Source: Candidatus Micrarchaeia archaeon
GTDB lineage: Archaea > Micrarchaeota > Micrarchaeia > Norongarragalinales > CAINOH01
DNA length: 63,972 nt
Direction of reading: 5' to 3'
Assembly: GCA_041663565.1 (NCBI GenBank)
Contig: JBAYMJ010000005.1
Location: forward strand, 1 to 63,972
Below the pieces are notes generated by a model, which was not told the DNA's origin, did not search any database, and saw only the letters and a list, made by a program, of their open reading frames with translations. Below, piece by piece: positions 33,451 to 56,130 of the stretch. How positions within the stretch are numbered: position 1 is the first letter of the stretch; each line of letters opens with the position of its first letter. Position numbers and translations under genes: made by a program.

Positions 33451-34385
33451 GTATAATTCTTAGAAGCCATTTACGCTCATTACGCTCAAGCCTCCCGTCT
33501 GAAAAACCTGTTTTTACGGTCAAATTTACGCTCTATTTTTGTTTAAATACGAAACGAGTTTTTGCAAAAACGGTTTACGCTCAAGATTACGCTCACGGTA
33601 TCAAAACTCTCGCTTGATGGTGTAGATATAATTCCTGAACGATTTTTCAGCGAAAACAAGCAAACCCCGCATTCTAGGAACGCTTGAAAATCAAGCGGGA
33701 ATCAAGCGACATTTCTATATATACTCTGTCGCTTGATTCTGTAAAACCGGCCTTGCGAGAGTCAAGCGCAAGAAAACAACCGAATTGACGTTATTTGATA
33801 GATATAATTCTGAGGACGCGATTACGTGGCACGGCACCAGCTTTACAGACGTGAAACGCCCGTTTCAGGCTGCGTTTTTACGTGGCACTTTGAATATATA
33901 CCAAAACCGACATGCCACGTAATCGAAAAGTCCGGGATTCACGTGGCACACACGGGAAAAATCAGCTTACCTTCAGCATCTTTGGGACTTCAAACCAGAT
34001 TACGCTGGCAACCGCAGCGATTATGCAGTAACCGATTTCAGAGGTTGCAAGCGACCCGAACTTGAATATCTGGCCAGGAAGTTCAGGCAATTGGAGAAAG
34101 ACTTCGCCAAAGTCTACATCTTGGTCACGAACAAGAAGCTGAAATACAAGTACACCAAGTACGGCGAGGTCGTGACCAGGGGAACGCTTAGGAAAACGAT
34201 AAGGCAGTTTTTCCGAATCAGAACGCCGGAAAAGCAGCCTGAGATATAGGTTCAGGTAGGGGGGTGTATACATATGGAGTTGGTTAGGGGTTAGAAAATT
34301 GGGGCGTTCCACGAATGGGAGCAGACCCCTAAAAGGCGATAATTTAGGGGTTAGTAAAACGCGATTTCACTTACCCTAAAATTTA
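33451..34385. repeat. Gene-poor block with four successive short-repeat families
   Basis: TTACGCTCA x4 plus variants; TCAAGCG/CGCTTGA x6; ACGTGGCAC x3 plus one inverted; TTAGGGGTTAG x2 plus CCCTAAAA x2; AGATATAATTC x2. Confidence 0.8.
33912..34249 (+). pseudogene. Possible frameshifted gene remnant
   Basis: ATG 33912 frame stops early; a second stop-free frame runs to TAG 34249 (..RKFRQLEKDFAKVYILVTNKK..) with no start codon. Confidence 0.25.
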
Positions 34386-52999: not shown

Positions 53000-53509
53000 T
53001 CACCACCTGTCCTTGTGCACGCGCGACTTGTCGAACCGGTCGGTCACGGGCTTCTGCTCGGCAGGATAACCTATCGGGATGACCGAAAGCGGGATTACGT
53101 TCTCGGGCAGGCCGAGAATCTTCTGTATCCCGGTGGCCCTTCCCGGGAGCGGGTACGCCGCGGTCCACACCGCGCCCAAGCCCAGCGAGTGCGCCGCAAG
53201 GAGGATGTTTGTCGATGCTATTGCGCAGTCCTGCTGCCACAGCCCGTCAATCTTGAGCAGGCCGGTGTCCCCGCATACCACTATCGCGAGGGCCGCTGCC
53301 GGCACCATCTGCGCGTGGGCGCTGACTTTTGGGATTTCCGAAAGCACGGCCTTGTCCGTAATCACGATGAAGTGCCAGGGCCGCTCGTTTACCGCGCTCG
53401 GCCCCTGCATGGCGGCGGTAAGTATCGCGTCTATCTTTTCCTGCTCGACCGGCTTCTGCTGGTACTTGCGGATGCTGTGCCTGGTCTTCTGCGCTTCGAG
53501 TACGTCCAT
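53000..53509 (-). CDS. Nitroreductase family protein
   Basis: RHSIRKY, PSAVNERPWHF, AHSLGLGAVW, IPIGYP. Confidence 0.93.
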   Translation of the reverse strand: MDVLEAQKTRHSIRKYQQKPVEQEKIDAILTAAMQGPSAVNERPWHFIVITDKAVLSEIPKVSAHAQMVPAAALAIVVCGDTGLLKIDGLWQQDCAIASTNILLAAHSLGLGAVWTAAYPLPGRATGIQKILGLPENVIPLSVIPIGYPAEQKPVTDRFDKSRVHKDRW

Positions 53510-53513
53510 AAAA

Positions 53514-54002
53514 TCACCATATGGGCGACTTCAGTACGCCCTTTTTCAACAATTCTGCAACGAATTCCTTATGAGTGCCTTGGGAAAAATGCTCCTTCGC
53601 CCTGCGGATTAAGGCGGCATAATTTGCTTGTGAGGTCCGGTTTTCCAGGTGGTGCTTTTCAAGGGCAAGAAAGACGTTGTATTTTTTCAAATCGGGGTCG
53701 AATGGAGTCACCTGATACTTGTTGACGCGGGCAGCATAGGATTTTTTTAAATCGCTGAGTTCCCTAGTATGGTCACGGACATACTCCTGGTCCGTCTGGG
53801 GGGTGCCGGCCTTGCAGGACAAATCCTGTTGGACCGTGAACTGAGGGATTTGCTTGTCGAACGCCTCGAAGGTGAGTTGTCCGGGCTGTTTTTTGCCAAT
53901 CGGACCGGGTTTGCCGCCTGTTTTGCCTGTCAGAAATTCCGCGTCCGACCCAGGCAAAGCAGCCTTGACGTCCTTGCGAATATTGCGCTCACCGAAGACC
54001 AT
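53514..54002 (-). CDS. Hypothetical protein
   Basis: 162 aa; stop lies 4 nt before the nitroreductase start. Confidence 0.5.
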   Translation of the reverse strand: MVFGERNIRKDVKAALPGSDAEFLTGKTGGKPGPIGKKQPGQLTFEAFDKQIPQFTVQQDLSCKAGTPQTDQEYVRDHTRELSDLKKSYAARVNKYQVTPFDPDLKKYNVFLALEKHHLENRTSQANYAALIRRAKEHFSQGTHKEFVAELLKKGVLKSPIW

Positions 54003-54050
54003 AAGCCAACCACCGACTGCGTATCAATAGACCCTGAGCGATTCAAGAAT

Positions 54051-54210
54051 AAAAAATGGCAGTCCACACCCGAAGTGAGGTGCTTGCTGTTGGCGGACCC
54101 GAAAGTCACGCAAAGCAAGGTTAAAATAAGCCGGGACGGGTAAAGGAATTCCGAAGGATTCCAAGTCCTCAGGTCGTGTTAGAACAAAACCCGGTGCACC
54201 CGCAAGACTA
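54051..54210 (-). ncRNA. Candidate structured ncRNA or leader
   Basis: Three UUCG-containing hairpins, complementary ends and a trailing U6 tract on the minus strand. Confidence 0.5.
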
Positions 54211-54303
54211 TTGTTGATTTTGGGCGCGCGCAAAAATCTTTTCCGGCTTGGTGCTTTGTTGCCATATTAGGCGTCGCCTTGTCGGACGTGTTGGTGGCCT
54301 TGG

Positions 54304-55671
54304 ATGCAGATTCTTGAAAACCTTGAAAAGCCGTTACCGCTCAAAAAGGAGCTCGGCCTGCTGGGCAGCTTCGCGATGGGCTTTGCCGACGTCGGCGCTG
54401 ACGTCTTCCTCGCACTCGGCCTGATTGCGGCCTACGCGCACGGCCTGATGCCGCTCGCGCTCATCGCCGCGTCGATAGTATACGTGTGTTCGGGCTTTTC
54501 GTACGCCGAGCTTGCGGCCGCGATGCCGGTGTGCGGTGGCGCGTCGGCCTTCGGCAAGCGCGCGTTCGGAAACTGGGCCGGCTTCGTCGCGGGCTGGGGG
54601 CTGATGCTCGACTACACCATCGACATCGCGCTCTTTGCAGTAGCGTCCGCGGGTTACCTCTCGTTCTTCGTGCCGGAAATCCGCGCGTTCTTCCCGCTTG
54701 TGGCAGCTGGGATTACGTTCATCCTCATGCTAATCAACCTATTCGGCATACGCGAGTCTTCCGCCTTGAACGGCGGGCTTACCGTGATAGTGATTGCGAT
54801 AGTGCTGGGGCTCCTTGCGTTCGGCTTCGGCACCACGTTCAGCATGGAAAAGTTCACTGCCGGGCTGACGCCGATTAATGCCGACCCGGGGGTGGACAGC
54901 TTCCTTTACGCAATCACGCTTGCGATGGTGACCTTCGTGGGAATCGAGAGCATCTCGCAGGGGGCCGAGGAGACGCGCGACCCGGGAAAGACCATACCTC
55001 GCGCGACGATGCTTGCGGTGTTCTCAGTCGTGTTCTTTGCCATCGCGGTGTCGGTGCTTTCGCTGGGCGTGGTCTCGTGGCAGGCGCTGGCGGACAACAT
55101 GGACCACCCGTTCGTGGCAGTAGGCCAGGCGCTGCCGGCGCCCGAGATAGTCGTGCCCATAATAGCGTTCGCGGGATTTGTCATCTGCTTCGTGTCAGCG
55201 AACACTGGGATAATAGGCGTGTCGCGCGTCGCTTACTCGATGAGCTGCGCCAACCTGATTTCGCGTAAGGTGAAGTGGCTGCACCCGCGCTTCCGCACTC
55301 CCTGGGTCACGATAATATTCTTCTCCGTAGTGGCGATGTTTCTTGCGTACTTCGGGAACATGGTGCTGTTGGGCGAGCTTTACGCCTTCGGCGCGCTCAC
55401 CGCGTACACCATCACCAACCTCTCGCAGATAGCGCTCCGCTTCAAGGAGCCCGGGCTCGTGCGGCCGTTCAAGGTGCCGCTCAACATAAGGTTCGGCACC
55501 GGCGACGTGTCGCTTGTGGCGGTAATCGGCGTCGCAAGCTGCCTTGCCGTGTTCTTCCTGGTGGCCCTTTTGCACGAGCAGGGCCGCAACTTCGCCTTCG
55601 TGTGGTTCGCCGCAGGGATTATCTATTTCGCGGTTGCCAAGAATGGTAAGCAGCCAGCTGCGATGTGTTGA
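54304..55671 (+). CDS. APC-family amino acid permease
   Basis: About 12 TM; GFADVGADVF, GGASAFG, FVGIESISQGAEE.RDP, RFRTP. Confidence 0.92.
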   Translation: MQILENLEKPLPLKKELGLLGSFAMGFADVGADVFLALGLIAAYAHGLMPLALIAASIVYVCSGFSYAELAAAMPVCGGASAFGKRAFGNWAGFVAGWGLMLDYTIDIALFAVASAGYLSFFVPEIRAFFPLVAAGITFILMLINLFGIRESSALNGGLTVIVIAIVLGLLAFGFGTTFSMEKFTAGLTPINADPGVDSFLYAITLAMVTFVGIESISQGAEETRDPGKTIPRATMLAVFSVVFFAIAVSVLSLGVVSWQALADNMDHPFVAVGQALPAPEIVVPIIAFAGFVICFVSANTGIIGVSRVAYSMSCANLISRKVKWLHPRFRTPWVTIIFFSVVAMFLAYFGNMVLLGELYAFGALTAYTITNLSQIALRFKEPGLVRPFKVPLNIRFGTGDVSLVAVIGVASCLAVFFLVALLHEQGRNFAFVWFAAGIIYFAVAKNGKQPAAMC

Positions 55672-55674
55672 ACT

Positions 55675-56130
55675 ATGTCTTTGAAGAAATCCAATGCAAA
55701 ACAGCCAGGGCTCCCCGCAAGGCAGGCAAGGTCGCCGGCAAAGCATAATGATGTTTTCACGAAGGGCGAGCGCAGCGCAGTTGACGGCCTGATTGCGCAG
55801 AAGTTCGGAAACTTCGCGCCAGGCAATTCAAGCGTCGAGCTTGTCGAAAGCGACGGAAAGTCGATAGTGGACGTGCGCGAGTCAATAGTCACGGACGAAA
55901 AAGGGGACAAGGCGGTCTCCGACACGCGCACGGTAATTGACAAGACCGGAGTCCACGTCCAGCAGGCTACTGTCGCCGACGCTTCCGACCCGAAGATTTT
56001 CATGGACCTTCTTTACAAGCTCAACGCCGAGCCCGTTGACGAGGACAAGATGCGCTCGTTCGAGGAGAGGCTTGCGAAGATGCGCGAGAAGCTGCGCAAG
56101 CCAAAGCATGCTGAAAGCGAAAAAACCTGA
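55675..56130 (+). CDS. Hypothetical protein
   Basis: 151 aa, 3 nt downstream of the permease. Confidence 0.55.
   Translation: MSLKKSNAKQPGLPARQARSPAKHNDVFTKGERSAVDGLIAQKFGNFAPGNSSVELVESDGKSIVDVRESIVTDEKGDKAVSDTRTVIDKTGVHVQQATVADASDPKIFMDLLYKLNAEPVDEDKMRSFEERLAKMREKLRKPKHAESEKT

Follow-up and report, generated by a model that had tools for sequence, protein, structure and literature searches.

The question raised by this locus is whether a 155-nt element between divergent genes of a Candidatus Micrarchaeia archaeon encodes a structured RNA akin to TPP riboswitches, or whether that likeness has some other origin. The element occupies positions 54210–54051 of the minus strand of the window, the 63,972-nt stretch of DNA that was analysed, and its letters, strand and coordinates are all as first read. 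The DNA is real, since sequencing runs of two studies, one of them possibly from the source sample, carry identical letters; reads of the second study span 53974–54130 and 54133–54302, with no variant inside the element. In this genome (1.28 Mb, 81% complete) the element sits in a 301-nt spacer, and approximately 21% of the 229 divergent gaps are as long. On the minus strand the spacer is bordered by an orphan ORF of 162 aa (53514..54002), which starts 48 nt downstream of the element on the same strand, followed by a nitroreductase (53000..53509; PF00881, E 3.5e-24). On the plus strand lies an APC amino acid permease (54304..55671; PF13520) with homologs named Micrarchaeota, followed after 3 nt by a gene of 151 aa (55675..56130, plus). 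The orphan ORF belongs to no Pfam family and has two homologs, at 70% and 58%; the Atlas protein search gave no usable match for it.

As far as the order of its parts is concerned, the resemblance to TPP riboswitches holds: the words GGGTG...CTGAG...TACCC follow one another as in the original prediction, and the predicted fold has a P2/P3/P3a-like topology, with a P2 helix (pair probabilities 0.70–0.97) joined to P3 and a P3a-like hairpin in a three-way junction. As in those RF00059 riboswitches that carry P3a, a G-rich P2 strand is followed by the P3 hairpin, CUGAG, a hairpin in the P3a position and ACCC, and an outer helix closes two arms. A passage of PMC2258182 gives the junction order of the pyrimidine arm as P2-P3-UGAG-P3a-P2', the P3a stem being optional, and assigns a role in the TPP riboswitch to the unpaired UGAGA after P3. 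The element, however, reads UGAGG where all seven TPP riboswitches fetched for comparison (two from the same order as the genome) have UGAGA, and in its predicted fold UGAGG is half-buried in a stem with CUG paired; of the eight letters of GGCUGAGA, invariant in 7/7 of the set, it matches five. The pyrophosphate-binding half is absent, as had been recognised from the start, a fully paired hairpin taking the place of the P4/P5 arm. The element further differs from RF00059 in its long linker, in a 3' part that is host promoter DNA and in having no thiamine gene downstream; no link to thiamine was found for the orphan, and what lies downstream is the orphan and nitroreductase pair with a promoter block of its own. 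The RF00059 model (gathering threshold 54.3 bits) found no match at E ≤ 10 on three ranges and the whole genome, in a search that was positive in 13 of 14 control genomes, and all Rfam families together returned only tRNAs and chance matches (E ≤ 10 on the three ranges, gathering level on the window). A model of the seven riboswitches reached at best −1.6 bits in the region of the element, which was not among its 13 matches in the window, and a TPP HMM left the element unscored. With the Rfam model, the seven-sequence model, the HMM and the UGAGA comparison all negative, membership is rejected: the element is not a TPP riboswitch. True TPP riboswitches, at 48 and 65 bits, occur at L303:1501-1607 (-) and L312:1501-1614 (-), in two of 68 genomes of the order and within one genus, where they overlap the start of a hydrophobic ORF of 96–110 aa upstream of RNA polymerase genes.

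Three UUCG words are indeed found in the element, but the second alone forms a true UUCG tetraloop in the minimum-energy fold, predicted to be closed by a U-G pair, at the tip of a long hairpin (54083..54119, minus; z −2.5); the first is folded into a loop of 3 nt, and the third is part of a larger one. Under a YUUCGG rule with a hairpin stem of at least four pairs, the genome holds 360 such hairpins and not one cluster of three, the locus of the element included. None of 1000 shuffles of the element yields three UUCG-containing loops. Genome-wide, 7 of 1453 UUCG triplets do so, representing four distinct loci with the element among them; the other three all lie within long ORFs, and the pattern therefore arises by chance at genome scale. 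The whole element folds at −47.1 kcal/mol (z −1.22), and 26 of 200 shuffles are equally stable, whereas sub-domains reach z −2.0 to −2.5. Since controls from the same genome range from z −4.4 for the SRP RNA and −3.5 for RNase P to 0.04 for 5S rRNA, and a genuine 5S rRNA thus scores near zero, z alone neither supports nor refutes an RNA. Of the two end pairings in the original prediction, AGUC/GACU has a probability of 0.44–0.58, falling to 0.34–0.40 if the RNA starts at 54209 and to 0 in a read-through transcript; GGTGC/GCACC is a possible helix, but its probability is below 0.15 and it clashes with P2.

No homolog of the element was found in several hundred relatives by model or by BLAST. 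A one-sequence covariance model, which is a blunt search of limited reach, gave a single weak match (18 bits, poorly aligned) among 149 other genomes and none in further sets of 150, 5 and 3. BLAST against 41, 401 and 400 genomes returned only pieces of 17–29 nt, and the nine pieces from the 401-genome search had no covariance model support; the genome samples overlap, so that these counts are not additive, and they refer to genomes other than those carrying the permeases P0004, P0005 and P0125, which are 89–91% identical to the permease of the window. At 78 loci of permease homologs the element was likewise absent from the upstream DNA (best E 0.14), and a permease riboswitch was rejected on this ground. 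Against phages and plasmids the best BLAST match had E 0.2. Pattern scans of viral sequences gave 14.4 bits as the best of 80 scored among at least 120 stretches, 9.6 bits as the best of 80 scored among at least 119, and 9.2 bits among sets of 12 and 49, all 61 of which were scored; viral contigs held no relative of the permease. The genome has no second copy of the element. Elsewhere in the window, at about 33785–33845, lies a repeated element of at least 58 nt, which contigs C5 and C14 (G000) share in almost identical form and of which C10 has a looser version. A literature search found nothing on the 155-nt element, and a full-text search found no paper in which Micrarchaeota and riboswitch occur together.

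The corresponding loci of four close relatives, L027 and L028 (reached through the two homologs of the orphan), G001 and G002, point to how the element was assembled. In all four the permease and most of the element are missing at this place, and the gene that stands behind the permease in the window lies directly opposite the orphan or another unrelated ORF; the permease was also not found in any of five other genomes of the family (75–90% complete). G001 is nearest to the window genome and has a different spacer, while G002, the most distant relative (59–61% identity), has the same short spacer as L027 and L028, and therefore the short state is the older one and the long state derived. The last 30 nt of the element align without gaps to the promoter spacer of L027, L028 and G002, with 13–15 of 30 positions identical and 11–12 transitions (joint P 4e-6 to 3e-4). 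This in-register homology covers the segment at 54056..54087 (minus), old promoter spacer in which the third UUCG lies together with the 3' strand of the long-range helix, and the second TATA box of the relatives coincides with the third UUCG hairpin. The tract of six U residues, although present as originally read, aligns with a block conserved ahead of the orphan start in the same three relatives; this T-rich tract (54047..54057, minus) is the promoter block of the orphan gene, and its word also stands upstream of several tRNA genes of the genome. The tract is thus a promoter whatever else its role, and could also end a transcript.

Since the last 30 nt are old spacer and the U6 tract is a promoter block, the 155 nt are a mosaic of inserted DNA, at about 54120–54210, and old spacer, and in the proposed outer helix a new 5' strand is consequently paired with an old 3' strand. 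Between the two, the long hairpin resembles the start of a 147-aa gene in two relatives: anchored alignment of 54090–54120 with that gene start gave P 0.009 for L027, 0.038 for L028 and 0.22 for G002. Only anchored tests were significant for homology of the element to the relatives; in unanchored local alignment with the gene starts 206 (L027), 167 (L028) and 986 (G002) of 1000 shuffles scored as high, and G001 was borderline (17 of 1000). In the ancestral locus, the orphan and the 151-aa gene stood back to back across a short spacer; the window lineage gained the permease and about 180 nt of other upstream DNA at this site, and the last 30 nt of the element with the T-tract are what is left of the old spacer. 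In some relatives the slot opposite the 151-aa gene (53514–54002 in the window; L230:2045-2359; L231:2049-2551) is occupied by orphan ORFs unrelated from one relative to the next, and G002 keeps the same promoter block before a different ORF, so that the slot looks like a site of gene swapping. The short spacer of the relatives (L027:3912-3950, L231:1955-1994) also contains a G-U-rich, terminator-like hairpin just before the T-tract (z −1.1 to −1.4).

As a 155-nt TPP-like RNA, the element is most likely not a real unit. The reading we prefer, with confidence that stays a little short of even, is that the 155 nt mark the seam of an insertion of about 1.6 kb, with the permease as its main cargo, into an old promoter region, and do not constitute one evolved RNA. 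The segment 54090–54120 would then be the decayed start of the 151-aa gene, whose old TATA box may have degenerated to the third 'UUCG hairpin' after the gene had come to be read together with the permease. The insert would have brought a leftward promoter, from which a transcript beginning at about 54209 could stop at one of the two U-tracts or run on into the orphan gene; the hairpins of any such transcript would be incidental and would bind no ligand. A conserved T-rich block, a decayed second TATA box and a new gene ahead of the old one are what the locus shares with a divergent archaeal promoter spacer split by gene insertion; unlike a plain spacer of that kind, this seam happens to take a multibranch fold with UUCG words. 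Against an insertion seam count the absence of three UUCG loops from all shuffles, the merely moderate significance of the second homology block, the stability of the sub-domains, and the third hairpin, whose five base pairs are paired in 20 of 20 cells over all four homologous sequences with one double change. Covariation was computable for this hairpin alone, and 85 of 500 shuffles score as high. Two further points against it, the position of a promoter and the strand preference of the 5' domain, lead to the strongest alternative.

This alternative, possible but clearly the less probable account, is a lineage-restricted structured RNA that arrived with the permease cassette, has its own promoter and starts at about 54209. 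The best promoter-like site of the BRE/TATA type in the spacer 54003–54304 (54229..54242, minus; 8.0 bits) was located with a matrix for which 190 upstream regions of the same genome served as the training set, the spacer of the element being left out. It lies 33 nt ahead of A54209, the first base of the fold, and the corresponding distance in the same genome is 34–35 nt for RNase P and SRP RNA and 38 nt for 5S RNA; a site so strong falls by chance in a given 7-nt intergenic window with a frequency of 0.8%. The matrix is crude, however: the site that it ranks second (7.9 bits) falls within the element, and for tRNA genes the distance varies between 14 and 69 nt. The promoter-like site is overlapped by an imperfect inverted repeat (about 54216–54238), which forms a weak hairpin and is a possible binding site for a regulator.

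The 5' domain (54129..54209, minus), which consists of inserted DNA and is absent at the site in the four relatives, is predicted to form a closed three-way junction made up of a short outer helix, the P2-like helix 54203-54197/54142-54136, a hairpin at 54193-54170, the UGAGG linker and a UUCG-containing hairpin at 54162-54145. The 84-nt stretch 54126-54209 folds at −25.7 kcal/mol with z −1.28 (z −1.96 for the core of the domain), as against z +0.21 on the other strand, G-U pairs favouring the minus strand. In an RNA begun at 54209 a local closing helix is favoured by 0.3 kcal/mol over the long-range pairing of the same 5' strand, giving an 81-nt three-way junction that lies wholly within inserted DNA, with a U-rich linker after it. 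This linker (54120..54130, minus), which marks the approximate seam, is unpaired in the best folds and scores 5.4–5.5 bits as a promoter on either strand; it is possibly the stop signal of a short RNA, or else a TATA-like block. The RNA might accordingly comprise the full 155 nt, or else a three-way junction of 81–90 nt with its end at the first U-tract. Since its 5' strand pairs either locally or beside the U6 tract, it could, judging from the modelled folds, act as an attenuator setting read-through into the orphan and nitroreductase genes; alternatively it could be a free small RNA. Like the archaeal stable RNA genes for RNase P, SRP RNA and 5S RNA, the element has a promoter-like site at a suitable distance before its first paired base and, after its last, a U-tract that is at the same time the promoter block of the orphan; the UUCG enrichment also speaks for an RNA. 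Unlike RNase P and SRP RNA, with their far lower z values, it stays at z −1.2 to −1.3 and has neither a detectable homolog nor, in the one hairpin open to comparison, covariation beyond what shuffles give, and near-equal alternative folds are probably common in G+C-rich sequence. That a real RNA is made here, mainly from the 5' half of the element, retains about a third of our belief, and the idea of a new ncRNA survives mainly for that half because the promoter-like site is well placed.

A more elaborate form of the same idea, which we consider improbable, combines the two likenesses: a permease-borne small RNA that has a promoter to itself, and a TPP-like pyrimidine arm whose core is changed, would have been grafted recently onto a host promoter as an attenuator, its 5' strand switching between a local partner and one beside the U-tract that is also the TATA box of the next gene.

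Also improbable is a dead, truncated TPP riboswitch. On this view the cassette would have brought along part of the TPP leader of a donor gene, namely its promoter and 5' half, the insertion seam having cut it where the pyrophosphate arm begins. The arm order agrees with the junction given in that passage of PMC2258182, the likeness stops near the seam at about 54120, the TPP riboswitches in two of 68 genomes of the order both have P3a, and the strict word pattern, which was picked after the sequence of the element had been seen, occurs once in the genome. A relaxed pattern, however, occurs six times, the linker that follows P2 is too long by about 11 nt, and three letters of GGCUGAGA differ; all three TPP models leave the element without a score. 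No such element was seen in the 30 permease leaders listed, and 13 permease loci scanned gave no riboswitch match.

That the element is a small gene or gene remnant, or acts through DNA hairpins instead of RNA, appears very unlikely. An open frame of 79 codons (54263-54024, minus) does run across it, but the only two matches of this frame among 1.84 billion proteins are repeat proteins, and no tblastx match fell below E 0.3. In G005 (L003:1490-1530) an 18-nt hairpin identical to 54145-54162 of the window caps a longer stem that directly follows a stop codon, a recurrence that may be chance; against this explanation also stand the single occurrence of the element in its own genome and DNA folds that are equal on both strands, at about −21 kcal/mol.

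Least probable of all, and very doubtful, is a working variant riboswitch responding to a thiamine fragment, a flavin or another ligand for the orphan and nitroreductase genes, since the orphan has, downstream of the element, a promoter block that persists in relatives lacking the element: the position on the same strand close upstream of the orphan and the loss of the long-range helix in the read-through fold would suit such a switch, but the element is absent from 4/4 nitroreductase-side loci or spacers of close relatives and nothing ties the orphan to thiamine.

Other identities were rejected. A divergent RNase P, SRP or 5S RNA was set aside, each of these genes being present at other places in the same genome. 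Likenesses noted by eye to an RNase P 3' end, a hammerhead core, a group I intron P7, an Sm site, box C/D and, on the plus strand, c-di-GMP-I and guanidine-I riboswitches have no Rfam support. A bacterial promoter and terminator scan was uninformative. At two other permease loci of Micrarchaeota, L162:604-745 and L164:2338-2471, a conserved common leader of about 140 nt was observed on the strand of the gene. It includes an identical block of 19 nt, and its 3' half may encode a short leader peptide. This leader has no Rfam match, and a model built from its two copies detects neither a further one in 99 other genomes nor a match to the element; it is a candidate cis-regulatory RNA or just a product of close kinship.

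If the preferred reading of an insertion seam is true, the locus is an ordinary one and serves as a warning that chance gives rise both to UUCG words and to motifs in the order of a riboswitch, and that in these archaea a TATA box can have the form of a U-tract. If instead the structured RNA is real, Micrarchaeota would have a new regulatory RNA, and one that offers a case of an RNA switch put together across a recent insertion. The TPP riboswitches in two genomes of the order and the conserved permease leader in two others may be better leads.
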